Below the pieces are notes generated by a model. That model was not told the DNA's origin. It made no database searches and worked only from the letters and a program-made list of their open reading frames with translations. A program made the position numbers and the translations under genes. 64,000 bases of DNA from a virus. The stretch is taken from positions 123,012 through 187,011 of IMG/VR virus record IMGVR_UViG_3300036766_002288; one strand, written 5' to 3'. This document shows positions 32,609 to 51,908 of this stretch, piece by piece; the stretch's first letter is position 1; the number at the start of each line of letters is the position of its first letter.

Positions 32609-32852
32609 AGATGCCGAAGAAATATTGCGTTTATACGAAACGTGCTATGCATACAATGAGTCTTTTAATTTTTACTATAAGCAAACGATGCCAAGATGTG
32701 AGTGTGAGGAATTTATAACAAGAAGAAATGTATGTAAAGGCGGTCATTGGGTTGTGCGACGTAAAATAGTCTATCAAGAGCATTTCGAGTTATTAAAAGA
32801 TAAAATTTGTGCGGGGGATGGGAGTGAATTGTATACATATGGACCTGATTAA
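32601..32852 (+). CDS. hypothetical protein
   Basis: overlapping ORF. Confidence 0.45.
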   Translation: MNKDAEEILRLYETCYAYNESFNFYYKQTMPRCECEEFITRRNVCKGGHWVVRRKIVYQEHFELLKDKICAGDGSELYTYGPD

Positions 32853-34224
32853 TGAATTTTCTAACCGTTTGCAAGAAAATAAAAGGTCTATATTTATTCA
32901 TGTGATTGGCGACTCGATGTTGGATCAGGATTATAGAGTTAATACTAATCGTATCTCCCCAGAATGTCCTAATGTAAATGTCCTCCAATCACCAGATGAT
33001 AAGCCATTTAGACAATTCCCAGGTGGTGCGGCTAATGTCTGCTATCAGCTAAGCAATTTCAATGTAATTTGTCGTTTATTCTCCTTCATAGATGAAGAAG
33101 CCTACCAAATCATCAGGGATAAGGGTGTTAAATATTGGGGGTTAGTGGGACTTCCACATGGTTATTTTGTGCCAAGGAAGAAGCGTTTCTATGCTCAAGG
33201 ATTTCAAGTAGTCTCTAGGTGGGATATAGAAAGGACTAATTATGGTATCGAATTTTTGGGAAACTTACAGAGTGAATTGCTCGATACTTGGCAAGTGTTC
33301 CAGGCAGAGCCAGATGTTATCATATTTTCCGATTATGATAAAGGTGTATTCAATAATTTTAGCATTAGCAGGATTAAGACTAATGCAATCACGATTGTAG
33401 ACCCTAAAGCCGCTCCATTAGAGCGGTGGAAAGGTTGCACGGTTTTCAAACCAAACAGTAAGGAAGCACGCGACCTGAGCGGTAAACAAGATTGGAAATC
33501 TCAGTGCGAATATTTCCAGCAAGTATTAGGCTGTAAGGTTGTAATTATAACCCAAGCAGGGGACGGCATTGTTGGTAAGACCGATGATTATTTCGAGTAT
33601 AGACCTAAGCTTAATATTACTCCAGTTGATATCGTAGGGGCGGGGGACTGTTTTGCTGGCATTCTAGCATTAGCGATGGCAATGGGGTTTAACGCTGAAC
33701 AATCTGCCATGATTGCTTTTCATGGTGGCATATTGTGTGTTCAGCAGAAAGAACGTGGTAGTTTTGGTCCCTGGTCATTTGGTAATAAGATCGTTAAGAA
33801 TGTTGATTTCCTGAAGGATAGAAACTACAAGCTGATATTCACCAATGGAGTTTTTGATTTACTACACACTTCTCACATTAATATGCTCAAATTTGCCAAG
33901 GCTCAAGGGGATAAGTTAATTGTTGCTTTGAACAGTGATGCTAGTGTTAAAAGGCTTAAAGGAGAGTCTAGACCTATTATCCCCTTAAAAAATAGGATGG
34001 AAGTTATTGCAGCTTTGGAATGCGTTGATTATGTAACCAGTTTTGAAGAGGATACGCCGCTTGAATTAGTCAAGCGGCTTAATCCAATTATGGTCAAAGG
34101 CGGCGATTACAGGAAGGAAGATATTGCTGGTTACGAAGTAGTAGGCCAAGACAACATTATTCTGTACCCGTATGAGCAGGGCAATTCCACTAGTCGTATC
34201 ATTCAGCAAATGAATTCAGAGTAA
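32839..34224 (+). CDS. hldE: bifunctional heptose-7-P kinase / heptose-1-P adenylyltransferase
   Basis: VIGDSMLD, GGAANV, SDYDKG, VDPK, KPN, DIVGAGD; FTNGVFDLLH, ALNSDASVKRLKG, STSRII. Confidence 0.92.
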   Translation: MDLINEFSNRLQENKRSIFIHVIGDSMLDQDYRVNTNRISPECPNVNVLQSPDDKPFRQFPGGAANVCYQLSNFNVICRLFSFIDEEAYQIIRDKGVKYWGLVGLPHGYFVPRKKRFYAQGFQVVSRWDIERTNYGIEFLGNLQSELLDTWQVFQAEPDVIIFSDYDKGVFNNFSISRIKTNAITIVDPKAAPLERWKGCTVFKPNSKEARDLSGKQDWKSQCEYFQQVLGCKVVIITQAGDGIVGKTDDYFEYRPKLNITPVDIVGAGDCFAGILALAMAMGFNAEQSAMIAFHGGILCVQQKERGSFGPWSFGNKIVKNVDFLKDRNYKLIFTNGVFDLLHTSHINMLKFAKAQGDKLIVALNSDASVKRLKGESRPIIPLKNRMEVIAALECVDYVTSFEEDTPLELVKRLNPIMVKGGDYRKEDIAGYEVVGQDNIILYPYEQGNSTSRIIQQMNSE

Positions 34225-35450: not shown

Positions 35451-35640
35451 CTTCTCTCCTTTGAAAAAAGCTTTTGCCATCTCCACCTCTAGGTGTATGT
35501 AAGTCATTATTGGAGTCTTTTACACACCAATCAATAAATTTGATTACATCCGCATTGCTTTCATTACCATCAAATAACCAATGACAGTATTTGGTTGTTA
35601 AGTGTTCTACAAAATCTTCGATAAAATCAGCTTGATTCAT
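35401..35640 (-). CDS. hypothetical protein
   Basis: coupled ORF. Confidence 0.4.
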   Translation of the reverse strand: MNQADFIEDFVEHLTTKYCHWLFDGNESNADVIKFIDWCVKDSNNDLHTPRGGDGKSFFQRREDDNAKSQKTLDDKDNS

Positions 35641-35908
35641 TTTTGTGTAACTTTTTATAAGATTTCATTGCTTTGGCAAATGGTACGTTTCTAACTTTGC
35701 GACCTTTTCTATCATACCAACCTACGTGTTCAGGCCATTCACTATCATCTAACTCGCTCGATTGTATTTCCCACCAAGACCAAGTATCTACCGCAGAGTC
35801 TTTAATAAGCTCAACAGCTTTTTCTACACTTGATGTTAAGTAAAAAACCATTTCGTCTATATGGTTTTCCGAAAATATTTCATGATGTAGGACAATGTAA
35901 ATTTTCAT
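35627..35908 (-). CDS. hypothetical protein
   Basis: coupled ORF. Confidence 0.5.
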   Translation of the reverse strand: MKIYIVLHHEIFSENHIDEMVFYLTSSVEKAVELIKDSAVDTWSWWEIQSSELDDSEWPEHVGWYDRKGRKVRNVPFAKAMKSYKKLHKNESS

Positions 35909-36156
35909 TGCATGTGTGGTTTGGAGATTTCCCAGGCTTTGCTAATATTTTCTTTTGCAACACGTAATGCATTAGATGCAGCTAATAAGGAAGAGGCAAG
36001 TAAATACCTTTCTCTAACATAATCCGCAATTGAGTCAGCGTAAAGCTCATTGGCTAATTTATCTAGAAATTCTTCTAGTGCATCGTAACGAAGATGGGCA
36101 AGATCAGTGGCGAGTTTTTCTAAACCACCTTCATAATTAATTTCTGTATTGTGCAT
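35905..36156 (-). CDS. hypothetical protein
   Basis: coupled ORF. Confidence 0.5.
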   Translation of the reverse strand: MHNTEINYEGGLEKLATDLAHLRYDALEEFLDKLANELYADSIADYVRERYLLASSLLAASNALRVAKENISKAWEISKPHMQ

Positions 36157-36617
36157 TATTGTTCCTTTGATTGCATATAAATGCTATTTTTGCCCGCTGT
36201 AACTGACTCCTGGTATCTTCGACACGTTAAATTAAGTCTATATTTGCCGATGAAGCGATTGTATATGTAATTCCTGTTTACAACAAGCCAATCGCTATCT
36301 TCAACCAGTAGTAGTGTACCTATTGGGGGGATTAAACCCAACTTACTATATGCAACTTTGGCATTTACTTGAATCCCTATTTCATCAGGCTCATCAATAC
36401 CAAACGTATTAAGTTGCTGTTGTTTCGGATAATCATAGAACGCATAAATTAGCACGGGAGGTATTGCTACAAAGACAGTTCCTTCGAGATAAAGTTTTTC
36501 AACAGTTTTATCTCGCTTGCAATAACCTTTGATTGTAACTGGATGCCCTGCACTTTCGATCCAATAACCATCTACTTTTCTTAATACATTTTTTATAAAA
36601 TCAAATATAATTCTCAT
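36156..36617 (-). CDS. possible neck/head-closure protein (T4 gp14-like)
   Basis: FGIDEPDEI...PPIGTLL pattern; weak resemblance only. Confidence 0.4.
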   Translation of the reverse strand: MRIIFDFIKNVLRKVDGYWIESAGHPVTIKGYCKRDKTVEKLYLEGTVFVAIPPVLIYAFYDYPKQQQLNTFGIDEPDEIGIQVNAKVAYSKLGLIPPIGTLLLVEDSDWLVVNRNYIYNRFIGKYRLNLTCRRYQESVTAGKNSIYMQSKEQ

Positions 36618-37140
36618 TTAATACTCCTAAGACTAAGTTAGCTACGTATTCATTGTTTTTGAATATTGCTTTTCGTTGGGTGCCTTCTACTTTAAACCCA
36701 GCGGCCTCGGCACATTTCACTGATACTTCATTAGTTATCAATATCTGAGCGTCAAGTCTGTGTAAATTCATTAATTTAAAGGCAAAAGCAACACCAGCAA
36801 TAACTAGCTTCTTACCATAGCCTTTTCCTCGCCAGCCCTGAAAGATATCCCAGCCCACATCCGCCTTCCTGTTTTGCCAATCAATATTGAAAAATTTAAA
36901 TACGCCACAATCGTAACCGCTAGTGTTTAATGAAACATTGGCAATGAGTATCAGAGTTCTGGGACATTGTGTTTCTTGACTGATGGATTCAAGCCATTTT
37001 TCCTGACTAGTAAGGTTGGCATAGGTGACAGTATGCGTGCCGAAATGACTTTCATTCTTTAAATCAAGTAATTTAGCAGCATCACACTTATCTGCTTTAC
37101 GAAAGGCTATAGTGTTTGTATGTGTGTACAAATAACTCAT
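36601..37140 (-). CDS. GNAT acetyltransferase, RimJ/RimL/PseH type
   Basis: IDWQNRKADVG, WRGKGYG, LHRL, N-x-x-S, GFKVEG. Confidence 0.88.
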   Translation of the reverse strand: MSYLYTHTNTIAFRKADKCDAAKLLDLKNESHFGTHTVTYANLTSQEKWLESISQETQCPRTLILIANVSLNTSGYDCGVFKFFNIDWQNRKADVGWDIFQGWRGKGYGKKLVIAGVAFAFKLMNLHRLDAQILITNEVSVKCAEAAGFKVEGTQRKAIFKNNEYVANLVLGVLNENYI

Positions 37141-38262
37141 TTACCAGCCCTCTTTAATGCAGTCTACGATGTAAGCTCGGTCTTTTTCAGTTACCCACCA
37201 GCCACAAGGGATTGCTATCATTTCTTTTGCGATTAGTTCCAGTCCAGGTAGTTGCGCCCTGAATTCTTTCAAGCAATCATGTTTGTCATTACGATCATGT
37301 ACTTGACTCACCATGATGCCTTTTTCTTTCATCTTTGTTATAAAGTTCTCTCTATTCCTAACCATTATTGTGTAAATCCAATAACTTGATTCATGATTAG
37401 TTTCATTCTCAGGTAGTGTTACACCAGGCATGTCCCATAGATTATTGTTATAGAACTTAGCGTTTTCTTTGTTTTTTTCAACTAAGCCCGATATATGTGG
37501 ATAATTTTCTATGCCGATAGTGGCATTAATATCATTCATATGGAATTTGAATCCAAAGTTCTTTATGTTTTGTGCGCATCTAAAATCTTGATTACTTGTT
37601 CTGTCTAGTCCATACCATCTTAATAATTTGGCATCATCGTGCCATAGTGCATTAGGGCTTATAATTAGTCCACCATCGCCAGTAGTAAAGTGCTTAATTG
37701 CCTGGAAACTGAATACCGAGAAATTGCCATGTGTGCCGATTAGTTTATTTTTGTATTTAGCACCCCATGCATGGGCACAGTCTTCGATTATATGTGGGGT
37801 GAATCCATATAGGTTGTTGCATTTTTCCTGTATTGTTTTTAATTTGTCAAGGTCTACTGGATAGCCACCCCAATGGACTACCATAACTGCTTTAGTTTTT
37901 GGGCTTATTTTTCTTGCAACATCATCTAAGTCAATATTGTAATTTCTTGGGTCAACATCAGCCCATCGCAGTTTCACTCCTCTTGAAAGTATGGCAAAGT
38001 TGGTTGCCGTGCAGGTCAATGGGGTCGTTATGATTTCATCATCTTTTTCAAAAGCTAATGTTCTTTTAATCATCTCTACGACAAGTTCTAATCCTGACGT
38101 GCAGCTATTTACTGTATTGACATAGGGGTTATCAAAATGATTGGATAACATCCTTTCAAATTCATCAACTTTTTTACCTTGCCCAATAAAGCCGCTCATT
38201 AATACTTTTCCTACTTCTATTGGTGCAGTAGGGGACATAAACACTTTAAATAAATCTATCAT
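37141..38262 (-). CDS. DegT/DnrJ/EryC1/StrS sugar aminotransferase
   Basis: VNSCTSGL, TPLTCTAT, VHWGG, IEDCAHA, FSFQAIKHFTTGDGG, GFKFHMNDI. Confidence 0.95.
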   Translation of the reverse strand: MIDLFKVFMSPTAPIEVGKVLMSGFIGQGKKVDEFERMLSNHFDNPYVNTVNSCTSGLELVVEMIKRTLAFEKDDEIITTPLTCTATNFAILSRGVKLRWADVDPRNYNIDLDDVARKISPKTKAVMVVHWGGYPVDLDKLKTIQEKCNNLYGFTPHIIEDCAHAWGAKYKNKLIGTHGNFSVFSFQAIKHFTTGDGGLIISPNALWHDDAKLLRWYGLDRTSNQDFRCAQNIKNFGFKFHMNDINATIGIENYPHISGLVEKNKENAKFYNNNLWDMPGVTLPENETNHESSYWIYTIMVRNRENFITKMKEKGIMVSQVHDRNDKHDCLKEFRAQLPGLELIAKEMIAIPCGWWVTEKDRAYIVDCIKEGW

Positions 38263-39041
38263 TTTGACTCCAGTGCCGTTTTGTATTCGGCAAATGCTGT
38301 ATCTGAGACTGACACCGATTGATGATATAATAGTTTTGTAATTGGTAAGTTTTTAATTTTAGGGCTTGAAGCGTGATACTTTGTAGAATAATTGTGTAAA
38401 TCTATTGTTTGGAACGATAGCCAGTTCATATTGTTTTGAATGGCCCAAGGATATAATAAGCAACCAGTGTCGTAATGTCCATTAGGTTTCAAAAATAATT
38501 CCTTGAAATTTTCTGGGGGACTATCACGCCACTCAAGTTTGAATCCAAGAAAATGATTTACGCCGAATTGTTGGGCAAACTTTTGGGTTGGCAATTTGGA
38601 TTTCCTTACCATCATGTTTACAACAGTAGGGAAGTATCCATGTACATACCAATTGGGATTATTTCTAGAAACACCAATCATATCAAGATTAAACTTTAGC
38701 ATTAGGTCATAATATAATTTGTCTACGTTGGTATAGAAAAATACATCTACGTCCGAGATAAGTATCAAGTCATTAGATGAGCAATCTATGGATTGGTGAA
38801 GTGCATGGAGGTGATCTTGACTTACATCCAATTTGTTAAATTTTCTGTACTCACTAAATGGGGAGCCTATTTCGCGGAAAGCGATACCATTTTCAATCCA
38901 CGTATTTGAATAAGTGTAATGTTGATCGGCTTTGCAGATTACGACTTCAGTTATTAATTTTGAGTGTTCAATTATTGATTTTTTGAAATGCTCAAAATAT
39001 CTTTCTACTTCTGGTATTGTGGTGGTTACTAATGTAATCAT
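38259..39041 (-). CDS. GT-A glycosyltransferase, subfamily A (copy A1)
   Basis: ILISDVD DxD; YDTGC...WLSFQTxD shared signature. Confidence 0.7.
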   Translation of the reverse strand: MITLVTTTIPEVERYFEHFKKSIIEHSKLITEVVICKADQHYTYSNTWIENGIAFREIGSPFSEYRKFNKLDVSQDHLHALHQSIDCSSNDLILISDVDVFFYTNVDKLYYDLMLKFNLDMIGVSRNNPNWYVHGYFPTVVNMMVRKSKLPTQKFAQQFGVNHFLGFKLEWRDSPPENFKELFLKPNGHYDTGCLLYPWAIQNNMNWLSFQTIDLHNYSTKYHASSPKIKNLPITKLLYHQSVSVSDTAFAEYKTALESK

Positions 39042-40024
39042 TTGTATTTGTTGGGTAAATATTTGGAATATAGTGGTCCATAATCAGGATGAGCATATAT
39101 TTCTTCTTCTAGCTCACGAACAACTGGTAGCCACTGTTTCAGTTTTTGTTCTTTACCAGTATCTATCTCCCAACTCATCGCCCCAAAATGAGTTATTAAG
39201 TGTGGGTCTAATTGCACAAATTTCAAGCCTTGTTGGACAGCATTATAGTAATGCCACGCACCCATTTCCATGCTTATATAATGATAATCAGCAGCTGTTT
39301 GTGGTGGATTGTCAAGTAACCCTAAATTCCTATAATATTTGAAAAACTCTTCAACGTTTCCAACCTTATCAGTCAATCTAAAAGGCGGCGTTTCTATGTG
39401 ATAACCACACCATGAAGACCCTAGTTTTCTAATCCATTTCTTTCGGCACACTAGAAAAGCACATAGTAGGTGCGGGAATCTTAATAATGGTTTATTTTGG
39501 TGTATCGCTGAGTCGCATTGACAACAGTGTAGGATTGGCGAATAAGCGATTACTACATTGGGGTCAGTGTAGAATTTGTCTTTAACCTCTTGTAGCCAAT
39601 TATGCTTGTTGATGATGATATCATCATGCATGATTAAATAGGCATCAGTATGTACCCAAGGAAGTGCCATCTCTACAGATTCAGGATGGCCTATTCGACT
39701 CCAAACTCTTATAACACTGACTGGCATATCGCGTTTGATTTTAGGCTCATCAATATGCCACCATTTTAGGCGTCTTAATTCTTCCAGAAAAGCCTGTTTC
39801 TGATCTTGGTTAGTCGGATCACCAGTTCTTTTATCTGGCCCATTAATAACCACCATGAAATGCTCAAGTAAGTCTTTAACTTTAGCTCTAAGTAAGAGCG
39901 AGAAGGTAGACCAGAGTAAACATTCTATCGGGGCCTGATATGTGGGGTATATGGCGGTTATTTTCTCTGGTACATGAGTTAATTCCACCGCGTCATCAAT
40001 ATCACAAATCATGTGGTTATGCAT
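39038..40024 (-). CDS. GT-A (GT2-like) glycosyltransferase, subfamily B (copy B1)
   Basis: KITAIYPT, INGPD, YLIMHDD; paralog of 42415-43410. Confidence 0.7.
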   Translation of the reverse strand: MHNHMICDIDDAVELTHVPEKITAIYPTYQAPIECLLWSTFSLLLRAKVKDLLEHFMVVINGPDKRTGDPTNQDQKQAFLEELRRLKWWHIDEPKIKRDMPVSVIRVWSRIGHPESVEMALPWVHTDAYLIMHDDIIINKHNWLQEVKDKFYTDPNVVIAYSPILHCCQCDSAIHQNKPLLRFPHLLCAFLVCRKKWIRKLGSSWCGYHIETPPFRLTDKVGNVEEFFKYYRNLGLLDNPPQTAADYHYISMEMGAWHYYNAVQQGLKFVQLDPHLITHFGAMSWEIDTGKEQKLKQWLPVVRELEEEIYAHPDYGPLYSKYLPNKYK

Positions 40025-41744
40025 ATATGTTCTCTATATTTTTTTTAGGAATAAATTCATTATAATCTTTGTTTGGGAAGTTTAAATAACAATTATCCTG
40101 TCCGTAAAATTTTATTGCATAATAATCGTAGTTTTCAGCGGCTTCTTGTGCCGTGGCGAATAAGCCAAGGTGTATAGGTCTTTTATTTATTACTAATTTA
40201 CTTATCCAGTGCTTGTTTTTTTGCAAAGTAATGCCCTTGAAGCCTGATTCTGATCTTGGAACTCTTAACCTTAGTATTTTTTGTATTTTTATTTTCTGTT
40301 GCTGAGTTCTTGGAATTTTTTTACAAATTTCTTTGTTTTGCTCACGCAATATAGCGTAATGTTCTAAATTTTTATTTCCATTTTTATATAACTCAAAAGC
40401 AGCTGACCGTATAGATACGGCTTTATTTTCAGTATTATAATTACCAAGGCGAATACATTGTCCGTTGATATAGATGAACGCAGACCAGCGGTTTCTTATG
40501 CGTTTGACTCCAGCATGTCCAGATGTATTAGATTTCATCAACAGAGAATGTCTGTCGATTTTTTGGCGGCTAATGCATTTATATTGAAAGCACTTCCAAG
40601 GTATGAAAGGTTTGATATTTTCAATAAAGTTAAACCAATTATCGCCGCCTATCCTGATGGTTGGTTTATCACGATGTTTATTTAATGTGCTAATTATTCC
40701 TAAATCTTTATATAATTTATCTCTCAAAAGGTTTACGTCATCATAAGTAAAAGATTCCGTATGCAGCATCAGGTTCCTACTACGGCTACAGTGATTGGAC
40801 CCATCATCGCACATCCATATTGCAGCAGTCTGCCAAGTTAATTTTAAATCCAATGGTACTATTTTTTGACTGTTTTTAACATAGGGGTCTTTATACCATT
40901 TTTTTCGGTACTCAGTGAACAGAGGATGGCAAACTGTATACAAGAAGGATGATGCAAGATATTTGCCGTTCCAGTGTTTTATATCATGGCAAATCATGCC
41001 ATTCATTGTGGAAGGTTTTCTAGTTTCTTTCTTACCATATGCTGACGAAAATGGTTCATATATTTGTTGTAAACCTTGTACGTATTCAGATGAATCTAAT
41101 TTTTGACATATTCTGAAACAGCTGTTTCCATTAGTTCCAGGTTTTAAATAACTTAACGACCCATCTCCTAGCATATTGCCAATAAAAATTTCTTCTTGTC
41201 TTTGTGAAAGTTTATCTGGGCATTGAAGTCTGTGAACGGTTGCTTTACCAAATACGCTATATTTACTTAAAAAGTTTTGCATACTGCTACAAGAAAGTCC
41301 ATATTCAATTGCTGTTTCTGCGACTGAATGAGTCTGTCTATATTGCGTTATTTCTGGGATTAATTTCGTATTTTTATTATTAGTTTCTGATTTGTAATAT
41401 GCATACCAACATTTACGTGAACAAAATCTAGCATTTTTTTCCATACGGTGTCGCTTAATTATAAATTTATTGTTACACCACTGACAGGATAATTCAACTT
41501 TTTTGCTGGTGTACGCTCCTACGCAGGCACGAGAACAAAATTTAAGTCTGTTGATGTCGTGTGGCATTACTAGGAATTGCTTGCTACATTGTTTGCAAAT
41601 TTTTTCAACTCTTTTTACACGTTGAACATGTTGAGAATCACTTGAACATTTACGAGAGCAAAATTTGCGTCTATTGGTGTCGTGTGGCATTACTAGGAAT
41701 TGTTTGTCACATTGCTTGCAAGTTTTTGTAAGTTTGTTGTTCAT
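40017..41744 (-). CDS. LAGLIDADG homing endonuclease with Zn-finger repeats and two AP2-like domains
   Basis: CKQC..F......RKFCSRxC repeats; GNMLGDGS and WMCDDGS; SNTSGHAGV...W...LG and SGFKGI...W...LGLF. Confidence 0.85.
   Translation of the reverse strand: MNNKLTKTCKQCDKQFLVMPHDTNRRKFCSRKCSSDSQHVQRVKRVEKICKQCSKQFLVMPHDINRLKFCSRACVGAYTSKKVELSCQWCNNKFIIKRHRMEKNARFCSRKCWYAYYKSETNNKNTKLIPEITQYRQTHSVAETAIEYGLSCSSMQNFLSKYSVFGKATVHRLQCPDKLSQRQEEIFIGNMLGDGSLSYLKPGTNGNSCFRICQKLDSSEYVQGLQQIYEPFSSAYGKKETRKPSTMNGMICHDIKHWNGKYLASSFLYTVCHPLFTEYRKKWYKDPYVKNSQKIVPLDLKLTWQTAAIWMCDDGSNHCSRSRNLMLHTESFTYDDVNLLRDKLYKDLGIISTLNKHRDKPTIRIGGDNWFNFIENIKPFIPWKCFQYKCISRQKIDRHSLLMKSNTSGHAGVKRIRNRWSAFIYINGQCIRLGNYNTENKAVSIRSAAFELYKNGNKNLEHYAILREQNKEICKKIPRTQQQKIKIQKILRLRVPRSESGFKGITLQKNKHWISKLVINKRPIHLGLFATAQEAAENYDYYAIKFYGQDNCYLNFPNKDYNEFIPKKNIENIYA
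41555..41702. repeat. 25-bp exact direct repeat, 123-nt period (duplicated Zn-finger module)
   Basis: TGTCGTGTGGCATTACTAGGAATTG at 41555 and 41678. Confidence 0.85.
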
Positions 41745-41747
41745 ATT

Positions 41748-42359
41748 TTAATCTCTTTTATAGTAAATTCTTTGTATTACAATCCCATTTTCATTATTGT
41801 CAGCTAATTCTAAGCCCCATACAAATGCTGGGGACATAGAACGTCTGTTATCTGGATATGGCATGTTTTGCCAAATATCAAAAGTGCTTAAATATAAAAC
41901 ATCTTTTTCAATTTTTGGGTCCATGTATAGTCCGTTAGTACTTGTTAAGGTTATTCCAGTGTTTTTTAAATCATCTTTCAGGATAATTTCTTTTTCCCAA
42001 AAATAACGAGAAGTAGGTATGTTGTGTGTTATTTTTTGGTATGTTCCGATTTCAAGTCCTGCATAACCTTGCGGTTCTGGCTCGCTACCTACTAACCAAC
42101 CACGATAATCACCGATATTAAAATCGCCAAGAATTTTTAAGACTGATGGTAGTTTTCTAAAAGTTTCATATTGAATATGATATACAAAAGGATTTTTCAT
42201 GACTTCTTTTAGAGACTCAATTTGCCAGCGATAATAGCGCCGATGACCACCTGCTGTTCTTTGTGGGATCAAATAACCCCGACTTTCGCAAAGTCGGATA
42301 GTTTCTGCACTAGTACCCCATATTTCAGCGGCCTCGCCTATCGAAATTAATTCATTCAT
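41748..42359 (-). CDS. MerR-type HTH fused to unknown domain
   Basis: ISIGEAAEIWG...TIRL...RTAGGHRRY. Confidence 0.7.
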   Translation of the reverse strand: MNELISIGEAAEIWGTSAETIRLCESRGYLIPQRTAGGHRRYYRWQIESLKEVMKNPFVYHIQYETFRKLPSVLKILGDFNIGDYRGWLVGSEPEPQGYAGLEIGTYQKITHNIPTSRYFWEKEIILKDDLKNTGITLTSTNGLYMDPKIEKDVLYLSTFDIWQNMPYPDNRRSMSPAFVWGLELADNNENGIVIQRIYYKRD

Positions 42360-42381
42360 AATCTTATATAGTGTGGATTCG

Positions 42382-42418
42382 ATAATTCTCAAAAATTATT
42401 TCGATTTTTGAGAATTAT
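42382..42418. promoter_or_regulatory. 15-bp perfect inverted repeat (operator or terminator)
   Basis: ATAATTCTCAAAAAT-N7-ATTTTTGAGAATTAT. Confidence 0.6.
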
Positions 42419-43410
42419 GCATATCTTGGTCCTCCAGGCATATATTTCACGTATAATTCAGAATAAGCTGGGTGTGCCATTATTTCATTTTCTAGATCAA
42501 TAATTTGGGTCTTGTAAGTTTCCATCTTCTTATTTGCAGTTTCTGCATTGGTATTGCTCATCTGTTCAAAGTGAATGATGTTGTCTTCCTTTAGCTTTGT
42601 GAATTTTGCACCTAATTGACAAAGTTTGTAGTAAAGCCATGCACCTATTTCTTGCCTGACAAAATTATACAATTCTACGGTTTGGATTTTCTCTGGCATT
42701 AAGTCACGATCTTCATAATATTTGAAAAATTCATTTTGGTCTGGTAACTCACTAATTTCAAACTGTAAAAAATTATCGTCTGATGGAATGTGGTAGCCAG
42801 TCCAACTTGCTCCCGCTTTCATAGTCCATCTTTTCTTAGCTACAAGGAAGGTCGTGTCTATTTGTGGCAGTCTTAGCAAATACATGCCACGGTGTATGGC
42901 ATAATCACAGTTACAGCCAAGTAGTTTAGGTGTATAGGCAATGGCTACATCTGGGTCATCATAGAAATTAGTTTTAAGTTCTGTAAGCCATTCTGGGTTT
43001 ATGAGGATTACATCGTCATGCATACACAAATAACTATCTGTATGCACCCAGCTTAGTGCCATTTCTAACGCTTCTGCATAGCCAACTCTGCTCCATGCAC
43101 GGATGACGGTAAGTGGCATTTGGCGACCAATTTCACCTGTATGAAACCAATCTAGGTCTCTTAATTCTTCAAGAAATTTTTGCTTAACGTCTTGCGGTTT
43201 AGGATCGCCAGTTCTTTCGTCTGGTCCATTAATATTGACGCAGATATGCTCTAACATTCCATGTGGTTTATTTCGGAGTAGTAGTGAAAATACTGCCCAA
43301 AGTAGACATTCTATGCCAGCATTCGAAGTGGGAATGATTGCAGTGATTTTATCTTTAAGATGTGTCAAATCGACGCATTCTTCTATGTTCATCGCCATTT
43401 GTGGGTGCAT
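42415..43410 (-). CDS. GT-A (GT2-like) glycosyltransferase, subfamily B (copy B2)
   Basis: KITAIIPT, INGPD, YLCMHDD. Confidence 0.7.
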   Translation of the reverse strand: MHPQMAMNIEECVDLTHLKDKITAIIPTSNAGIECLLWAVFSLLLRNKPHGMLEHICVNINGPDERTGDPKPQDVKQKFLEELRDLDWFHTGEIGRQMPLTVIRAWSRVGYAEALEMALSWVHTDSYLCMHDDVILINPEWLTELKTNFYDDPDVAIAYTPKLLGCNCDYAIHRGMYLLRLPQIDTTFLVAKKRWTMKAGASWTGYHIPSDDNFLQFEISELPDQNEFFKYYEDRDLMPEKIQTVELYNFVRQEIGAWLYYKLCQLGAKFTKLKEDNIIHFEQMSNTNAETANKKMETYKTQIIDLENEIMAHPAYSELYVKYMPGGPRYA

Positions 43411-43411
43411 A

Positions 43412-44284
43412 TCATTCCTCTAATTTCGACAACTCATACTCTTTTTTAAATTTAGCATAACGTTCCTCCACCATCATACCACTTGGTTTGCTTCCATGCA
43501 ATATAATTTGGTCTAATTCCAGGCCAATTGTTGTACCATGATTGCAATGATAGAGTAACTTTTGTTTTTGTGGTCTTGGTATTTTTAAGTTACATTTGTG
43601 ATATAAAGTTGAGTAAGTGTTGCAATCTAGGGTTTGAAAGGCTAACCATTTCCAATTTCTTTCTTTATTAAATATCCATAAATTACAACCCGTTTCAAAT
43701 AAACCGTTTTTATTAGGGAAAAGGTCAACATATTCAGGGATTGCCCCAGGTATAAGATATTTGCCAGGGAAATTAGTCTTTAGGTTAACTTGATTTTCTT
43801 CCGATTTGTACCCTCTTATTTTTAATTTATTTTCTAAGAATTTTGGGGTGGGTAGATCATTTTTTCGTACAAGAAGACTGATTTGATTTGGAAAGAAAGT
43901 TGCTGAATGTTCTACTGAATGATGATGTGAACAGCCTATAATGTTTAGGTTATGTTCTTTCATTAAATCAAAATAGATTTCATCTGCTGCATTGTAGAAG
44001 AATAAATCTGGGTCAGATAAAAATATATAGTCGTTTTTTGCTCTATCAATACATTCATGCAAACCAATTGCGTGTTGAATTCCATGTATTTGGTAGTTAG
44101 GACAACCAAACTTAATGAATTTAATCGAACCCACTTGCCATTCTTTATAGAAAGATTTTTCTGCGTCTACTTTTGCCAATAGAACTTCGGAGATAAGTTT
44201 TGTTTTTCTTAGTATTGAGTCCAGAAAGATTTTTTCAAAATATTTTTCTAGGCAGTCTAAGGTCACTGTACACAAACTAATCAT
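43412..44284 (-). CDS. GT-A glycosyltransferase, subfamily A (copy A2)
   Basis: HAIGLH, FLSDPD, FETGCNLW...WLAFQTLDC. Confidence 0.72.
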   Translation of the reverse strand: MISLCTVTLDCLEKYFEKIFLDSILRKTKLISEVLLAKVDAEKSFYKEWQVGSIKFIKFGCPNYQIHGIQHAIGLHECIDRAKNDYIFLSDPDLFFYNAADEIYFDLMKEHNLNIIGCSHHHSVEHSATFFPNQISLLVRKNDLPTPKFLENKLKIRGYKSEENQVNLKTNFPGKYLIPGAIPEYVDLFPNKNGLFETGCNLWIFNKERNWKWLAFQTLDCNTYSTLYHKCNLKIPRPQKQKLLYHCNHGTTIGLELDQIILHGSKPSGMMVEERYAKFKKEYELSKLEE

Positions 44285-45152
44285 TTTTCATTTCCTCAAA
44301 TTTCTGGAAGAAGGCTTCTTTTGCTGTGCTTTCTTGCTCTGCGTCGCCTCTTGAACCACTGATTAGATGGTATAGTAACTTGCGATTTTTGATTTTGTCT
44401 ATTCTAATATTACCCCTATTATAGGCAGTATTGTAAAGGTGGCAATCCGTTGTCTGAAATGCTAGCCATCTCCAATTTTTTTCGAGACTCCATAACCATA
44501 GGTTGCAGCCCACGTCAAACAGTCCATAGTCCTTAGATAAATTTTTGTTTGGAAACTTATCATATAAGCCTTCTATTGGGCCTTGTAGCAACCAGTAGCC
44601 ATCCATAGGTTCTGCGGTTTGGTTTTCCACTGTTTCTAAATTGTTTATATGGAGGGCATTTATTAATTTGATTTTACCTTTCAAGAAGGTGTTGGTCGGT
44701 AATGACCGTTTTTTAACCATGCTGTTCGTTATGCAGGGAAACCAAGTGAAGGCTTGTGTCATTGCTGCATGGTGAGAAATACCTATGTAGTCAATATCAT
44801 ATTCGTTGATTAAGTCTAAATATAAGGTTTCAACTGGATGATAGAAAAATACGTCAGGATCGCAGAACATGACGTATTCACTGTTTGCACGTTCAAGACA
44901 TGCGTGCATCCCTAGAGCATGACCATTTGCTAAGCAGTTCCATGTTTTATCTTTCCAAATGTCAAGTAAAGGGTGGCCAAACTGTTTGAATTGTATATTT
45001 CCCTTAGTCCAGACTCTATCGTAGTAGTTTTTTGCATCTATATGGGCAATGATGACTTCTGAGACGTTTTTACAGTGCATGGCTATGGATTCAAATAATG
45101 CTTCTATGAATACATCACACCCAGCGTAAAGAACAGTGCATATACTAACCAT
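44277..45152 (-). CDS. GT-A glycosyltransferase, subfamily A (copy A3)
   Basis: HALGMH, MFCDPD, FDVGCNLW...WLAFQTTDCH. Confidence 0.72.
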   Translation of the reverse strand: MVSICTVLYAGCDVFIEALFESIAMHCKNVSEVIIAHIDAKNYYDRVWTKGNIQFKQFGHPLLDIWKDKTWNCLANGHALGMHACLERANSEYVMFCDPDVFFYHPVETLYLDLINEYDIDYIGISHHAAMTQAFTWFPCITNSMVKKRSLPTNTFLKGKIKLINALHINNLETVENQTAEPMDGYWLLQGPIEGLYDKFPNKNLSKDYGLFDVGCNLWLWSLEKNWRWLAFQTTDCHLYNTAYNRGNIRIDKIKNRKLLYHLISGSRGDAEQESTAKEAFFQKFEEMKND

Positions 45153-45990
45153 CTTCGTATGCCTTTTTAAAAGTGTCTAATTCTTCTGTATTTCCCCTTG
45201 AGCCACTCCCTAGATGGTAGAGCAATCTTTCTTTTTTGAATCGTTCTTTCAGCCCAAAGTTGTTTTTGGAGAAACCTACTAAGTGATAAAATAACTTCAT
45301 TTTGTCCAGTCTATAATTTAACTTAATATTGCCCCGACAAAAATTAGTTGTATAATTATGACAATCTGGCGTTTGGAATGCTAGCCATTTACCATTCTTA
45401 AACTTATTCCATAGAGTTAGGTTACTTCCAGTGTCAAAATGACCTTTGGGATTGGGAAATAGATCAGCAAATTTTTCTATTTTGTTTGGGATTAAAAATT
45501 TGCCATCCAATGGTTGGTCGCCGTCTTTTAGATAACCTTTCAGGAAGTCATCCCCAGGTAGTTCTGATTTTTTAATAAGGCAGTTTCCAATCCAGGGGAA
45601 AAATGAGTATGCCATGATTGTGGCACTGTGATGAGAAGCTCCTACTATGCTTAAATCATGTTTATTCATTAAATTAAGATATAGTTCTTCTACAGGATTG
45701 TAGTAGATTATGTCTGGGTCTGAAAGTAATATATAGTCGTTTTTAGCCTTAGCTATACAGGCATGTAGGCCCAGAGCATGTTCAACGCCTTGTTGAGTTC
45801 GTTTGAGTGGATGACCAAATCTGACTATTTTTACATTACCTTTAGTATCTTCGTTTTTATAGTTGTCTATAGCATCGACTTTTGCGATTAATACTTCTGA
45901 AATTAGTTTTGTGTGTCTGACTATAGACTTTAGGAACAATTCCATGAATGGTTCCATTCCATTGAGTTCAACTGTACATAAGGAAATCAT
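45145..45990 (-). CDS. GT-A glycosyltransferase, subfamily A (copy A4)
   Basis: HALGLH, LLSDPD, FDTGSNL...WLAFQTPDCH. Confidence 0.72.
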   Translation of the reverse strand: MISLCTVELNGMEPFMELFLKSIVRHTKLISEVLIAKVDAIDNYKNEDTKGNVKIVRFGHPLKRTQQGVEHALGLHACIAKAKNDYILLSDPDIIYYNPVEELYLNLMNKHDLSIVGASHHSATIMAYSFFPWIGNCLIKKSELPGDDFLKGYLKDGDQPLDGKFLIPNKIEKFADLFPNPKGHFDTGSNLTLWNKFKNGKWLAFQTPDCHNYTTNFCRGNIKLNYRLDKMKLFYHLVGFSKNNFGLKERFKKERLLYHLGSGSRGNTEELDTFKKAYEDG

Positions 45991-46817
45991 TCTGCCTCCT
46001 TGGACTGGTCATAAGCATTTATAAAAGTATCCCAATCCCTGCCATTTGAGCCGCCGACTACATGATAGATGAGTTTTTGTTTAGGTAACTTGTCTATTTT
46101 TATATTGCCCCTATTACAGGTAGTTGAATAGGTGTGGCAGTCTGTCGTTTGAAATGACAGATATTTCCAATTTTTTTCTTGTGCCCATAGCCAGAGATTA
46201 CAGGAAGTGTCGAAATAACATGGTGCATATCTTGGATTTTTATTTGGAAATTTGTCATGATGTTCTGGCAAAGGGCTTTCAATCAAATACTTACCATCGG
46301 CCAGTTTATAATCATCATCAGGTCTTAAATCCTTGACGTGTAGAACCCCGAGTCGATATTTTAGTTGTCCTTTCATCCAATTTGGGTCGGGTAGGTCTGA
46401 TTTTTTCACCATTGAACAGACGACATATGGGAAGAAGGTATAAGCTTGGATTACTGATGCATGGTGAGAACAACCTATGTAGTTTATCCCGTATTTGTGC
46501 ATTAAATCCAGATACAACTTTTCTACTGGAGAGTAAAAGAAAATGTCTGGATCGCAAAACAGAAGGTAGTCGTTAGTGGCCCTATCTATGCAGGCGTGCA
46601 GACCCAACGGATGACCATACCACATATGCTGTGCCATGTGCCCAAACATGTGGAATTTTATTCCTCTTTCTGTCCAGGTTTTATCTAAGCTAGAGTCAGA
46701 ATCAACTTTGGCTATTAGCACTTCAGACACTAGTTCTGTTTTACGAAGGACAGAATCTAGCATTATTTTGATATGTTCTTGCAGTGAATCTATTAGAACA
46801 ACGCAAATTGTAATCAT
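45987..46817 (-). CDS. GT-A glycosyltransferase, subfamily A (copy A5)
   Basis: HPLGLH, LFCDPD, FDTSCNLW...YLSFQTTDCH. Confidence 0.72.
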   Translation of the reverse strand: MITICVVLIDSLQEHIKIMLDSVLRKTELVSEVLIAKVDSDSSLDKTWTERGIKFHMFGHMAQHMWYGHPLGLHACIDRATNDYLLFCDPDIFFYSPVEKLYLDLMHKYGINYIGCSHHASVIQAYTFFPYVVCSMVKKSDLPDPNWMKGQLKYRLGVLHVKDLRPDDDYKLADGKYLIESPLPEHHDKFPNKNPRYAPCYFDTSCNLWLWAQEKNWKYLSFQTTDCHTYSTTCNRGNIKIDKLPKQKLIYHVVGGSNGRDWDTFINAYDQSKEAE

Positions 46818-47632
46818 GAATTTTCATATTCCTTTTTAAATTCTTCGAATTCATCGTCTCTCATGTTTGAGCCACCAACGTTATGGTATGCAAGTTTTTG
46901 AAAGGGTAATTTCCCAGGTTTTATATTGCCCCTAATATATTTTGTTGTGTAGATGTGGCAATCGTCCGTTTGGAATGATAGCCATTTCCAGTTGTTTAAT
47001 TTAGCCCAAGCCCAGACTTTACATCCAGTATCGAATACTCCGTCTTTATTTGGATATAATTCAGTACACACCCTAATTAAGCCTGGAGCAAGGAATTTAC
47101 CATCGTAACTAGTATATGAAGTTTCATCTTCATGCATTTCTTTAATCCTGAACATGCCATAGAATTTGAATTGGCCCTTTAACCAATCTTCACCTGGCAA
47201 ATCTTTTTTGTTCATTAAAGTGGCATATACACATGGGAAGAAGGTCATTGCATGGTTTACTGCTGAATTATGCGATAACCCAATGTAATTTAGTTCATAT
47301 TTATTTATCAAATTTATGTAAAGTTCGTCTATGGCTGAATACCAGAAGGTATCTACATCACCTATCATCACGTATTCATTTTGGCTTCTATCAATGCAAT
47401 GATGCAGATTTATGGCATGTTCTAGAGATTGTTGGTGCCTTACACCAGTAAATGTGCCGAATTTAGTGAATTTTATCCCGTTTTTTGTCCAAGTTTCATT
47501 AAGACTCGGTGGGCTATCTGTCTTGGCAATAAGCACCTCGGAGATCAGTTTACTCCTGTTCACTAGAGATTCCAGGAGGTAGGGCAGGTATCTTTCTGTC
47601 TGGTCTAGGGTTACAGTGCAATAAGAAATCAT
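46814..47632 (-). CDS. GT-A glycosyltransferase, subfamily A (copy A6)
   Basis: HAINLH, MIGDVD, FDTGCKVW...WLSFQTDDCH. Confidence 0.72.
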   Translation of the reverse strand: MISYCTVTLDQTERYLPYLLESLVNRSKLISEVLIAKTDSPPSLNETWTKNGIKFTKFGTFTGVRHQQSLEHAINLHHCIDRSQNEYVMIGDVDTFWYSAIDELYINLINKYELNYIGLSHNSAVNHAMTFFPCVYATLMNKKDLPGEDWLKGQFKFYGMFRIKEMHEDETSYTSYDGKFLAPGLIRVCTELYPNKDGVFDTGCKVWAWAKLNNWKWLSFQTDDCHIYTTKYIRGNIKPGKLPFQKLAYHNVGGSNMRDDEFEEFKKEYENS

Positions 47633-47666
47633 GATAAAATTTTTTCAATGCCGCTAATTTAAGTTA

Positions 47667-48167
47667 ATGGTTACGAGCGGCTTAGGCATAAATGTTTTGG
47701 TGAACTCAACTTACAATATTCCAGGGGACTGGATGGCGTTTAGTTTATGTTATTCCATACATAAATTTTTACCAGACGCCAGTATTTTCATTAAATATAC
47801 CAAAAAATCTCAAGTTAGCAAGCAATTATTCAGGTGGATAACCAGCTTGAACATCAAGAATATCAGTAAATTATCTGAGCCATTTCTTAACTTGGAATCA
47901 ACCTTCATCATGATTAGACCTATGGAAACAGTTGTTTTTGACCTAGCGGAAGTGTGTTCAGAGGTCAAGGAAGATAAATTTACACCATTTGTATCTTACC
48001 AAAAAGGATGTGGTAAGTTTGTTGTGGAGGAGTGGATAAATAAAGAGGAGTATCCATTTGCTCAAGCTGATAGTTTTATGACAGAGGATGTGTGTGCCAA
48101 TGAAATTCAAGTATTAAAGCTTTGGAGACAAATGAATACTTTATATCCCTTGCTTACACGAGGTTAA
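47667..48167 (+). CDS. hypothetical protein
   Basis: ORF divergent from GT operon. Confidence 0.55.
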   Translation: MVTSGLGINVLVNSTYNIPGDWMAFSLCYSIHKFLPDASIFIKYTKKSQVSKQLFRWITSLNIKNISKLSEPFLNLESTFIMIRPMETVVFDLAEVCSEVKEDKFTPFVSYQKGCGKFVVEEWINKEEYPFAQADSFMTEDVCANEIQVLKLWRQMNTLYPLLTRG

Positions 48168-48875: not shown

Positions 48876-50957
48876 ATGGAGAAATCCCTTAATTTAGACC
48901 GCATTGCTGCTAAGTTTAACGTTGAAGAATTCAACACCCTTAATGAGGAAATGAGTTTTTCTGAGTATTTGGACAAAGTATATGCCAACCCATTGCTGAT
49001 TAGAACTGCGTATCAAAGACTTTATGATATGGTTGTCAGTGAAGGCATGGAAGAAATATATGAGAACAAAGAGAAGTTGTTTAGATATAAGTTCTTCGAT
49101 AACCCAGAAATCCCTATTTTTGGCTTGCACAAGCCTTTGAACGAGCTAGTTAAGTTCTTCAGGGGTGCTGCTGGTGGCTATGGTACCGAAAAGAGAATTC
49201 TTCTTCTTCATGGTCCAGTAGGTTCTTCCAAATCGACCATTCTTAGATTAATCAAACATGGCCTTGAGAAATATACGGCAAAGCCTGAAGGGGCATGGTA
49301 TTCCTTTAAGTGGATTAATCTGCCAACAGGTAAAGATGGCATTTATACCCATTGCGAAAATGATTGCCCAATGCACGAAGAACCTATCAAACTTATCCCT
49401 AAGCAATTGAGAAAGAAAGTCATTGCTGAATTGAATGAGATTCATCAGGAAAACTTGGCTGATAAGGACAAAAATGCTGCTTATACCCTAACCTGCATCG
49501 GTGAACTTGATCCACGTTGCCGTAAGTTTATGAAGGAATTGATGATAAAGGAGAAGGGGAATTGGAAAGTAGTCCTTGATAAGTATATCAGAGTTGTGAG
49601 AAAGGTTCACTCTGAAAGTGACCGTTGTGGCATTGCTACCTTCCAGCCAAAGGACGAAAAGAACCAGGATGCTACAGAACTAACTGGTGATATTGATTTT
49701 GGTAAGATCGGTCAATTTGGTGCAGATTCTGATTCCAGAGCATTCAGTTTTGATGGTGAATTGTGTGTGGGTAATCGTGGTGTCGTTGAATTCATCGAAA
49801 TGCTCAAACTTGCACAAGAATTCCTATATGACCTATTAGGCGCAAGCCAAGAACGTCAAATCAAACCCAAGAAGTTCTCGCAGATTTCAATTGATGAAGC
49901 AATCATAGGTCATACTAACAATCCAGAATATGAGAGACTTAAGAGCAATCAATATATGGAAGCTCTTAAGGATAGAACTGTAAAGATTGATATTCCTTAC
50001 TTGCTGAGTTGGGCAGATGAGACAAGAGTATTAGAACAGGATTATGGAACTGGCAAAGTAAAACAGCATGTCGCACCTCATACGTTAGAAATCGCAAGTT
50101 TGTGGTGTATTTTGACACGTTTGGAAGATGACAAGGATGGCAAACTTACTCTTGTACAAAAGGCAAAGCTTTATAATGGAGAAATACTTCCTGGCTATAC
50201 AGAAGATACCATTAAAGAACTACATGACAAACACCCAAATGAAGGGCTAAAGTTTGGTGTCAGTGCCCGTTATTCACAGGACAAGATCAGTAATTGCTTG
50301 AGCAACAATCACGATTACATCAGTCCTTTCATGGTCCTACATGAGATTAAGGAAGGTCTAGGCAACAACACATTAATCAACAAGAAGGAAGAGTTGGCCC
50401 ACTATTATAATTGTGTGGATTTAACGATCAAGGAGTTTAATAAAATCCTCATGGACGAGGTAAGAAAGGCATTAGTGGGCGATGAGAAGGTAATTGAAAG
50501 ACTGTGTGCGAATTATATTGAGAATATCTTGGCGTATATCAGAAAGTCCAAGGTTAAGAATAAGTTTACGGGTAGGGATGAACCGCCAAATGAACGTTTG
50601 ATGCGTTCTATCGAAGAAAAGATTGGTATCCCAGATCAAGGTGTTGACGATTTTCGTCGCACAATTGCTGCTTTCATTGGTGATATGGCTAATAGCGACA
50701 AGAAATTCCGTTGGGACAGCAATCCTGAGTTAAAACAGGCTTTGCAAGACAAGTTGTTCGAAGATACACAAGATCATATTAAGCTATCAACGCTTAATGT
50801 ATCAGAGGCAACTGTAGTACAACCAGATATCCAAGAAAAAATCGACCAGATCAAGAAGAGACTTATCGACCAATATGGATATAACGAAAGGTCTGCTTCG
50901 GATGTTTTGGATTATGTTGGAAGTTTGTTCGCTCAGAATAAGACTGAGGAGAAGTAA
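48876..50957 (+). CDS. prkA: PrkA/YeaG-family AAA+ protein
   Basis: ILLLHGPVGSSKS, CPMHEEP, FQPKDEKNQD, NRGVVEFIEMLK, GHTNNPEY, EALKDR. Confidence 0.93.
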   Translation: MEKSLNLDRIAAKFNVEEFNTLNEEMSFSEYLDKVYANPLLIRTAYQRLYDMVVSEGMEEIYENKEKLFRYKFFDNPEIPIFGLHKPLNELVKFFRGAAGGYGTEKRILLLHGPVGSSKSTILRLIKHGLEKYTAKPEGAWYSFKWINLPTGKDGIYTHCENDCPMHEEPIKLIPKQLRKKVIAELNEIHQENLADKDKNAAYTLTCIGELDPRCRKFMKELMIKEKGNWKVVLDKYIRVVRKVHSESDRCGIATFQPKDEKNQDATELTGDIDFGKIGQFGADSDSRAFSFDGELCVGNRGVVEFIEMLKLAQEFLYDLLGASQERQIKPKKFSQISIDEAIIGHTNNPEYERLKSNQYMEALKDRTVKIDIPYLLSWADETRVLEQDYGTGKVKQHVAPHTLEIASLWCILTRLEDDKDGKLTLVQKAKLYNGEILPGYTEDTIKELHDKHPNEGLKFGVSARYSQDKISNCLSNNHDYISPFMVLHEIKEGLGNNTLINKKEELAHYYNCVDLTIKEFNKILMDEVRKALVGDEKVIERLCANYIENILAYIRKSKVKNKFTGRDEPPNERLMRSIEEKIGIPDQGVDDFRRTIAAFIGDMANSDKKFRWDSNPELKQALQDKLFEDTQDHIKLSTLNVSEATVVQPDIQEKIDQIKKRLIDQYGYNERSASDVLDYVGSLFAQNKTEEK

Positions 50958-50960
50958 TTT

Positions 50961-50999
50961 AACGGACCTTCTGCCTAATTACGCAGAAGGTCCGTTTTT
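50961..50999 (+). terminator. intrinsic terminator
   Basis: 14-bp stem plus T-run. Confidence 0.8.
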
Positions 51000-51013
51000 C
51001 TTAGGAGACTAAT

Positions 51014-51244
51014 ATGTTTAATCCTTGGTTATTTAGGCATCAGTTTCCAGTAGGTAGTCAAGTTGAAATATTAAGGGAAGGGACGCTTGATGTTTATCAA
51101 GAGAAAATGGTTGGTAAAATAGGCACTGTTACGAATGTTGACTTTTTTAACGAATGGGTAGGTGTGCATATTGATGGTGGTCCTAAATGGATTTGTAACG
51201 TAAGGAGTTCAGATGAAATTTTATTTAAGAGATCGCAACCCTAA
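51014..51244 (+). CDS. hypothetical (SH3/KOW-like) protein
   Basis: SD AGGAG; VGSQV...GKIGTV pattern. Confidence 0.45.
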   Translation: MFNPWLFRHQFPVGSQVEILREGTLDVYQEKMVGKIGTVTNVDFFNEWVGVHIDGGPKWICNVRSSDEILFKRSQP

Positions 51245-51902: not shown

Positions 51903-51908
51903 TGTCAT

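Follow-up and report, generated by a model that had tools for sequence, protein, structure and literature searches.

An island of predicted glycosyltransferases from two uncharacterised GT-A families, fixed in position and variable in content among related huge phages

The window analysed here, a stretch of 64,000 nucleotides (nt) of viral DNA corresponding to bases 123012-187011 of the 187-kb IMG/VR record IMGVR_UViG_3300036766_002288, carries on its minus strand a glycosyltransferase operon that runs from 47632 to 36601. Its twelve tightly packed genes follow each other in the order A6-A5-A4-A3-A2-B2-[MerR-like, LAGLIDADG]-B1-A1-DegT-GNAT, most of them overlapping by 4 or 8 nt and the rest separated by gaps of 0-22 nt. 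The open reading frames found there have the order, coordinates, strand and overlapping or abutting arrangement given in a preliminary description of this DNA, which had been made from the sequence alone.

The first gene of the operon is A6 (46814-47632, 272 residues), recognised by a Pfam GT2 match below cut-off (E 4e-4) and by alignment with the other members of what we call family A. These are A5 (45987-46817, 276 residues; 76% identical to its ortholog L008_p1, L numbers denoting loci of the related phages presented below), A4 (45145-45990, 281 residues; 66% identical to the ortholog L008_p2), A3 (44277-45152, 291 residues; pairing with L026_p3 at 53% identity), A2 (43412-44284, 290 residues), which is the member modelled here and has orthologs L007_p4 and L008_p4, and the divergent A1 (38259-39041, 260 residues; 46% identical to its positional ortholog L016_p3), which lies after B1. 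Family B comprises B2 (42415-43410, 331 residues) and B1 (39038-40024, 328 residues; orthologs at 67-89% identity in relatives). Between these two genes lie those of a MerR helix-turn-helix (HTH) protein (41748-42392, 214 residues; Pfam E 4.9e-11) and of a free-standing LAGLIDADG endonuclease that has a zinc-finger-like motif at its N-terminus and an AP2 domain at its C-terminus (40017-41744, 575 residues; LAGLIDADG_2 E 1.1e-20). The operon continues with a DegT/DnrJ/EryC1-type sugar aminotransferase dependent on pyridoxal phosphate (37141-38262, 373 residues; Pfam E 2.5e-74) and a GNAT N-acetyltransferase (36601-37140, 179 residues; Acetyltransf_3 E 4.8e-15), so that Pfam bears out the earlier assignment of these last four proteins.

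The twelve genes are where the operon had been placed, but its limits were drawn too narrowly at 36601: three small coupled genes on the same strand, o153 (36156-36617), o83 (35905-36156) and o93 (35627-35908), extend it down to 35627 with overlaps of 17, 1 and 4 nt. They had been missed, as had a conserved HldE-like gene (32809-34224, plus strand), which is convergent with the operon, encodes a bifunctional sugar kinase/nucleotidyltransferase (PfkB and CTP_transf_like domains) and forms a conserved boundary of the island. None of the three small genes has a Pfam or PHROG match or an NCBIfam family. The product of o83, an acidic, all-helical protein of 83 residues, is kept in most of the 13 loci searched with tblastn, including LR756511.1 and L015, which are devoid of family A, and is undetected by the same method in L016, L017, L026 and L029; an accessory or scaffolding role in the glycan system is conceivable for it. 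A scan for sigma-70 promoters in the region was uninformative (55 sites vs 55.7 expected), and none of the 16 terminator-like sites (9.6 expected) lies at an operon end.

Proteins A1-A6 are mutually 36-47% identical across their full length (260-291 residues) and share, as originally noted, one scaffold and a C-terminal signature. Invariant in all six are H71, H76, D91, D93, F216-Q-T (216-218), D220 and H246 (A2 numbering), and the C-terminal W..W.WLxFQTxDC block is peculiar to the family. The motif H-x-x-x-L/M-H, formerly attributed to A2-A6, is indeed present in these proteins and also in A1, hence in all members. The pair D91-x-D93, an acidic DxD-type motif after the fourth strand, is at least 90% conserved over 55 homologs. 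B1 and B2, in turn, are 50% identical and have in common the motifs INGPD and MHDD, as previously reported, with D64 (INGPD) and D132-D133 (MHDD) invariant across 65 homologs. The DxD/DD acids and one C-terminal His are retained in all eight proteins, which, having intact metal and nucleotide-sugar motifs, are all predicted to be glycosyltransferases. They had been regarded as eight paralogs; eight GT-A enzymes they appear to be, but profile-profile comparison of A with B (hhalign) gives a probability of only 0.2%, which indicates two separate families, of six and two genes, devoid of detectable sequence homology. Among the A paralogs, residues 196-250, containing the signature block, are the best conserved (pairwise identity averaging 51%), whereas variability is highest, with indels, in residues 146-195 and 251-290, a distribution that would fit a shared catalytic core flanked by paralog-specific acceptor loops.

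The preliminary statement that family A did not resemble anything described agrees with our searches. The cut-off of PF00535 (Glycos_transf_2, 23.3 bits) is not reached by A6 (20.8) or B2 (19.7), and the other six proteins give no hit; neither family has a PHROG or NCBIfam match, and profile searches of PDB sequences return chance-level matches only (cutinase and CBL for A, a MerR-type regulator for B). The ESM Atlas result for the glycosyltransferases is limited to 'viral, GT2-like'. The family A profile retrieves 53 proteins among 5.8 billion clustered sequences and 254 representatives, 159 of them at E < 1e-30, among 1.84 billion sequences, all metagenomic; matches to sulfotransferase and methyltransferase fusions with the A domain are weak. 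For family B we found 218 homologs, usually two per contig as a B2/B1 pair. Two more GT2-like genes, one of them above the Pfam cut-off, are present in the 187-kb record outside the window (47408-47731 and 88575-88991 of the record).

Structural models were then obtained with AlphaFold2 for A2 (predicted local distance difference test, pLDDT, 96.4 with 55 homologs) and B2 (93.9 with 65 homologs). Foldseek aligns the A2 model with WrtF, SpsA, TarS, TarP and RmlT at E ~1e-6 and the B2 model with PcManGT/WrtF at E 1.6e-7, while VIA gives A2 Z-scores of 13.1 to WrtF and 12.2 to SpsA over 168-176 residues. For B2 the VIA matches span Z 15.7-14.5 and include hyaluronan synthase (15.7), the BcsA GT domain (15.5) and WrtF (14.9). 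Both families are predicted from these models to adopt a GT-A, GT2-like fold, in which one Rossmann-like alpha/beta/alpha domain can be superposed on solved enzymes, in line with the fold proposed beforehand. The fold neighbours have Foldseek TM-scores of 0.35-0.45 and identities of 9-18%, low values which back the fold and not any specific activity. None of the eight glycosyltransferases contains a hydrophobic stretch of transmembrane grade, and their isoelectric points (pI) lie mostly between 5 and 7, i.e. acidic or neutral (5.2 for B2).

The virus carrying these genes is a huge phage of approximately 590 kb. The 187-kb record has a CheckV completeness of 37% and a GC content of ~37-38%; its proteins recur on a contig of 590,099 bp, and the PrkA of the window (48876-50957) is 78% identical to that of LR756511.1, the complete 595-kb genome of an uncultured phage, from which the huge-phage context follows. 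Since the related phages also are contigs of 587-596 kb, the label 'provirus' attached to the record is probably a classification artefact. Genome-wide searches for absent genes covered these 187 kb out of ~590 kb, together with the complete relative LR756511.1, which is without family A. Neither the region (megablast) nor A2 (tblastn) has a match in 50,697 phage records, where B2 matched LR756511.1 only. Scanning one genome per species for 185,579 prokaryote species we found a single locus, on a 46-kb contig binned as a Chloracidobacterium metagenome-assembled genome (MAG). Besides the same island, this contig contains homologs of two other genes of the window phage (61982-62617 and 62846-64000) and is therefore phage DNA. 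An identical cluster residing in host chromosomes as an ordinary lipopolysaccharide (LPS) or exopolysaccharide (EPS) locus, envisaged in the preliminary description as the case contradicting a phage system, was thus not encountered among these species. Six further loci were retrieved from IMG/VR. In total, 12 further loci from ~10 distinct related phages have the same island between the PrkA-YeaH-SpoVR operon and the HldE-like gene.

The organisation of the island was compared by searching 13 loci with the window genes (tblastn) and from the gene tables of the relatives. On one side there is a common frame, SpoVR-YeaH-(Macro)-PrkA-Zn-ribbon-o124-o166, and the island runs divergently from the PrkA block as A(n)-B2-B1-A(m)-DegT-GNAT plus small genes, with the HldE-like gene beyond; the latter adjoins the island in L007, L011 (which is LR756511.1), L015, L027, L028, L029, L030 and L031. 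Within this frame the number of A copies, a comparison advocated at the outset, varies from 0 to 6 per phage. There are 5+1 copies in the window and in L031, 4+2 in L030, 4 plus one beside HldE in L008, L027 and L028 (near-identical copies of one phage), 4 in L007, 2+1 in L016, 0+3 in L026 and 3 in L029, where they lie between two B genes. LR756511.1, L015 and L017 have none and possess instead long proteins with B-like domains. In LR756511.1 (L011 7180-11989) such domains form the N-termini of proteins of 969 and 670 residues, the remaining 350-650 residues of which have no Pfam match except for one GT2 hit in the 670-residue protein. Tailoring genes also occur in the islands of relatives, namely a methyltransferase in L015 and a weak match to pyruvyl transferase in L017. 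The island is thus syntenic among relatives while its set of glycosyltransferases differs from phage to phage. What is new here, besides the two GT-A families, both uncharacterised and one almost restricted to the clade of the window phage, is the cassette-like assortment of family A in 0-6 copies per genome and the constant placement of the island, with the PrkA operon on one side and the HldE-like gene on the other.

The stress-kinase operon of PrkA, YeaH (DUF444) and SpoVR/YcgB (48876-54698, plus strand) adjoins the island in all relatives, and in the window a Macro-domain gene (51213-51803) is inserted behind PrkA. Downstream of this operon, on the same strand (56288-61951), are the genes of an AAA ATPase, a small YspA/SLOG (DprA-like) protein and a full-length DnaE-type Pol III alpha subunit (1185 residues with PHP, polymerase, finger and HHH regions).

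To the question of how the A array arose, phylogenetic trees of 14 sequences (IQ-TREE, LG+C20) and of 38 sequences give the same answer: no A paralog of the window is nearest to another one of the window. A5 groups with L008_p1 (support 100), A4 with L008_p2 (99-100), A2 with L007_p4 and L008_p4 (99-100), A3 with L026_p3 (96) and A1 with L016_p3 (89), whereas A6 has no supported partner, its nearest sequences being L030_p5 and L031_p6, and no ortholog in L008. At least eight A subtypes can be distinguished, of which each genome carries a different subset. Because A1-A5 pair with copies in other phages and not with their own neighbours, the array is an old multigene family, assorted by differential retention or exchange between genomes. 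Recent amplification in situ is rejected on the same grounds, and the origin by gene amplification suggested in the preliminary description is not supported.

The MerR-HTH and LAGLIDADG/AP2 genes have a different history. Their 2.4-kb block (40017-42392) sits exactly between B2 and B1, preserving an 8-nt stop/start overlap with B1, while in L007, L008, L016, L026, L027, L028, L030 and L031 the B2 and B1 genes are adjacent or overlapping without this cassette. Given that B2 and B1 are contiguous in every relative having the pair, the block is a homing-type insertion and no part of the pathway, contrary to the initial inclusion of both genes in a glycosylation assembly line. A role of the MerR protein as regulator of the operon can likewise be discarded, since none of the other islands contains the cassette. 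The related phages are generally rich in homing elements, with inteins in DegT, ThyX and SpoVR genes: the DegT gene of L007 (14511-16694, 727 residues) is interrupted by an intein with LAGLIDADG endonuclease, the ThyX gene of the same phage has a LAGLIDADG insert, and the SpoVR gene of L008 and L016 contains an intein/LAGLIDADG insert. Other genes for mobile nucleases near the island encode a second LAGLIDADG_2 protein (22448-23260, plus strand), a TnsA-like endonuclease with a zinc finger (26206-26871, minus strand) and an HNH_3 protein (29998-30657, plus strand).

The enzymes that may supply sugar donors were compared with NCBIfam models. DegT had been grouped with a GNAT of PseH type, and PseC and PseH are in fact the nearest models of the two proteins, but the scores (204 bits vs a cut-off of 423, and 38 vs 93, respectively) are well under the equivalog cut-offs, and no NeuB-type synthase (PseI/NeuB) is present in the 187-kb record or in complete LR756511.1. 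On these results from the record and LR756511.1 we reject a pseudaminic or legionaminic acid pathway; the pair would constitute a generic route in which a keto-deoxy sugar becomes an amino sugar and then its N-acetyl derivative. The HldE-like protein joins a PfkB kinase to a cytidylyltransferase-like domain, as in HldE, and does not attain the corresponding cut-offs (249 vs 521 bits for HldE, 163 vs 181.5 for the adenylyltransferase domain II and 127 vs 345 for the kinase), so that it may have the architecture of HldE and a different substrate. LR756511.1 additionally encodes four epimerase/dehydratases of the short-chain dehydrogenase/reductase (SDR) superfamily, two of which flank its DegT, and one NTP_transferase.

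Taken together, these observations lead us to propose, tentatively and as somewhat less than an even bet, that the island directs the soluble, stepwise assembly of a variable glycan without recognisable lipid-carrier genes, the acceptor being most likely a phage protein. DegT and GNAT would turn a keto-deoxy nucleotide sugar, produced by dehydratases of the host or encoded elsewhere by the phage, into an N-acetylated amino-deoxy sugar donor, while the HldE-like enzyme would activate a heptose-like sugar phosphate. A conserved core of one or more steps would then fall to the B2/B1 pair, with one more linkage added by each A paralog, so that the structure of the oligosaccharide would be set by the A subtypes carried; placed on a phage protein, such a glycan would make competing strains differ in their particle surface. 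Consistent with this proposal are the predicted fold, the motifs retained in all eight enzymes, their lack of transmembrane segments and mostly acidic or neutral pI, the variable segments 146-195 and 251-290, the synteny of islands with 0-6 A copies drawn from old, assorted subtypes, the tailoring genes in relatives and the weak matches to fusions of the A domain with sulfotransferases and methyltransferases. Equally consistent are the failure to detect a ThyA-type hydroxymethylase in the 187 kb and the lack of lipid-carrier initiators (PF02397, Bac_transf; PF00953, WecA-type GT4) and of a Wzx flippase (PF01943) in the 187-kb record and in complete LR756511.1. A Wzx/Wzy- or ABC-type bacterial O-antigen/EPS locus was considered and rejected, as none of these three families is present in LR756511.1 or in the 187 kb, which cover 37% of the genome of the window phage, and the species scan yielded the phage-like MAG contig alone.

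The choice of a protein acceptor is favoured as most likely by analogy with the Megavirinae, chlorovirus and mycobacteriophage systems compared below. Several points weigh against it. A phage protein is no more than a candidate acceptor, and the island lies among auxiliary genes (the PrkA operon, ThyX and the HldE-like gene) and not beside capsid or tail genes. Moreover, peripheral GT2 enzymes acting on undecaprenyl-linked intermediates of the host are also without transmembrane segments, and the absences just mentioned are only indicative, given that 187 kb of ~590 kb were searched and the complete relative searched has no family A.

Some of these points lend themselves to a close rival explanation, remodelling of the host envelope, which we consider possible although doubtful. 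The soluble enzymes would act on lipid-linked or polymer acceptors of the host (LPS core, O-antigen, capsule or teichoic-acid-like) by way of host initiation and export, altering the cell surface during a long infection, for instance to exclude superinfecting phages or to prevent adsorption of progeny to debris. The top fold neighbours are indeed enzymes of envelope glycans, namely WrtF (O-polysaccharide), TarS, prophage-encoded TarP, RmlT, KfiA and SpsA (PMC12595478); with TM-scores and identities as low as those reported above, however, they are uninformative on the acceptor. Homologs of HldE normally supply the heptose of the LPS core, the neighbours of the island are auxiliary genes for manipulating the host, for example the PrkA operon, and surveys of huge phages class such glycosyltransferases as envelope-associated (bioRxiv 10.64898/2026.10.24.761521). 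Conversely, the searches of the 187-kb record and LR756511.1 revealed neither an initiating transferase nor a flippase, polymerase or ligase, and eight transferases are many for a simple receptor-masking side-branch.

Hypermodification of DNA, in which an oligosaccharide on a modified phage base would block restriction and CRISPR nucleases, seems improbable. Phage GT-A enzymes that are fold-related to TarP and JGT glycosylate 5-hydroxymethylcytosine (5hmC), and serial transferases extend DNA glycans (bioRxiv 10.1101/2023.12.21.572611), while tri-arabinosylated cytosines also exist (PMC13326640). The known pathways nevertheless require either a ThyA-type hydroxymethylase/hydroxylase or a C5-methyltransferase with 5mYOX (bioRxiv 10.1101/2023.12.21.572611; PMC13326640). 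There is no ThyA homolog (PF00303) in the 187 kb, and a search for Tet_JBP (PF12851) in the same record and LR756511.1 was negative, a weak result in that its control remained silent. Several relatives do have a thymidylate-synthase gene at a distance of ~1-3 kb from their island, and in the window ThyX (30602-31477, plus strand) is upstream of the HldE-like gene; but in LR756511.1 (L011 16078-18155) the ThyX site is occupied, in a non-orthologous replacement, by ThyA, dihydrofolate reductase (DHFR) and a small cytidylyltransferase-like gene, which points to ordinary synthesis of deoxythymidine monophosphate (dTMP). The acidic or neutral character of the transferases, B2 included, also speaks against DNA as acceptor. 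It is very improbable, finally, that the island decorates a small molecule or glycolipid, as in antibiotic sugar pathways with DegT/DnrJ/EryC1 enzymes, for even if the DegT family is common to antibiotic deoxysugar pathways, no aglycone-forming genes (polyketide synthase, nonribosomal peptide synthetase or terpene) occur in the island or in those of relatives, and natural-product glycosylation is mostly carried out by GT-B enzymes, GT-A/GT2 enzymes being uncommon.

Returning to the assembly of a glycan on phage protein, the variable gene content suggests an extension that we regard as conceivable and rather speculative: family A would provide combinatorial cassettes, with at least eight old subtypes in 0-6 copies per genome around a fixed B2/B1-DegT-GNAT-HldE core, by which each strain writes its own oligosaccharide on its particle. 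If true, this would be the phage equivalent of O-antigen serotype variation in bacteria and of the fibril glycans of giant viruses, achieved entirely with soluble enzymes belonging to two new GT-A families. To our knowledge, virus-encoded glycan synthesis is well documented in giant eukaryotic viruses and a few mycobacteriophages, and hardly in huge phages. The locus is concrete, conserved and variable, and its two uncharacterised families are confidently modelled and easy to express; it thus allows testing whether huge phages coat particles, DNA or host with strain-specific glycans, the natural islands with 0-6 A genes being a ready series in which gene content can be related to the structure of the glycan.

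Among known systems, the closest in protein fold are the GT2-type GT-A enzymes of CAZy, such as WrtF (9omh), SpsA (1qg8), TarS/TarP, RmlT and KfiA, which have in common with families A and B the Rossmann-like core and an acidic DxD-type motif (VIA Z 12-13 for A and 14-16 for B). The two families differ from them in the low identity and TM-scores given above, in the Pfam GT2 scores below cut-off and in the W..W.WLxFQTxDC and H-x-x-x-L-H motifs of family A. Phage DNA glycosylation, as in the glucosyl-hmC (glucosylated hydroxymethylcytosine) of T-even phages, the methyltransferase/5mYOX/glycosyltransferase clusters (bioRxiv 10.1101/2023.12.21.572611) and arabinosyl-5hoC (arabinosylated 5-hydroxycytosine; PMC13326640), similarly employs several glycosyltransferases, some of GT-A type, in series with nucleotide-sugar enzymes of the phage; its defining base-hydroxylating or hydroxymethylating partner was not found in the 187 kb searched here. 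Flavobacterium phage vB_FspM_immuto (NC_055915.1) has an aminotransferase 50% identical to our DegT within a block of glycosyltransferases, a second aminotransferase, an epimerase and a methyltransferase, a block known from annotation only, with another gene order and no family A or B genes.

Mycobacteriophages Che8, Corndog and Myrna glycosylate their virions and, in the account of Freeman et al. 2023 as cited in PMC12619734, decorate their own capsid and tail proteins by means of phage-encoded glycosyltransferase operons, a role that the operon described here would share. According to that same account, their operons comprise 2-6 glycosyltransferases near structural genes; these belong to other families, with only the fold in common. 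Further parallels are offered by the fibril clusters of Megavirinae, which are clade-specific and comprise 6-33 genes (PMC10117803), and by the autonomous capsid glycosylation of chlorovirus PBCV-1 (PMC10117803, PMC9614988). These are eukaryotic giant viruses for which glycans and targets have been determined experimentally, whereas the present tailed huge phage is known from its genes and has other glycosyltransferase families. Like the island, however, both systems combine an aminotransferase and an N-acetyltransferase with cytoplasmic glycosyltransferases, vary in content between related viruses and do not need genes for a lipid carrier or for export.

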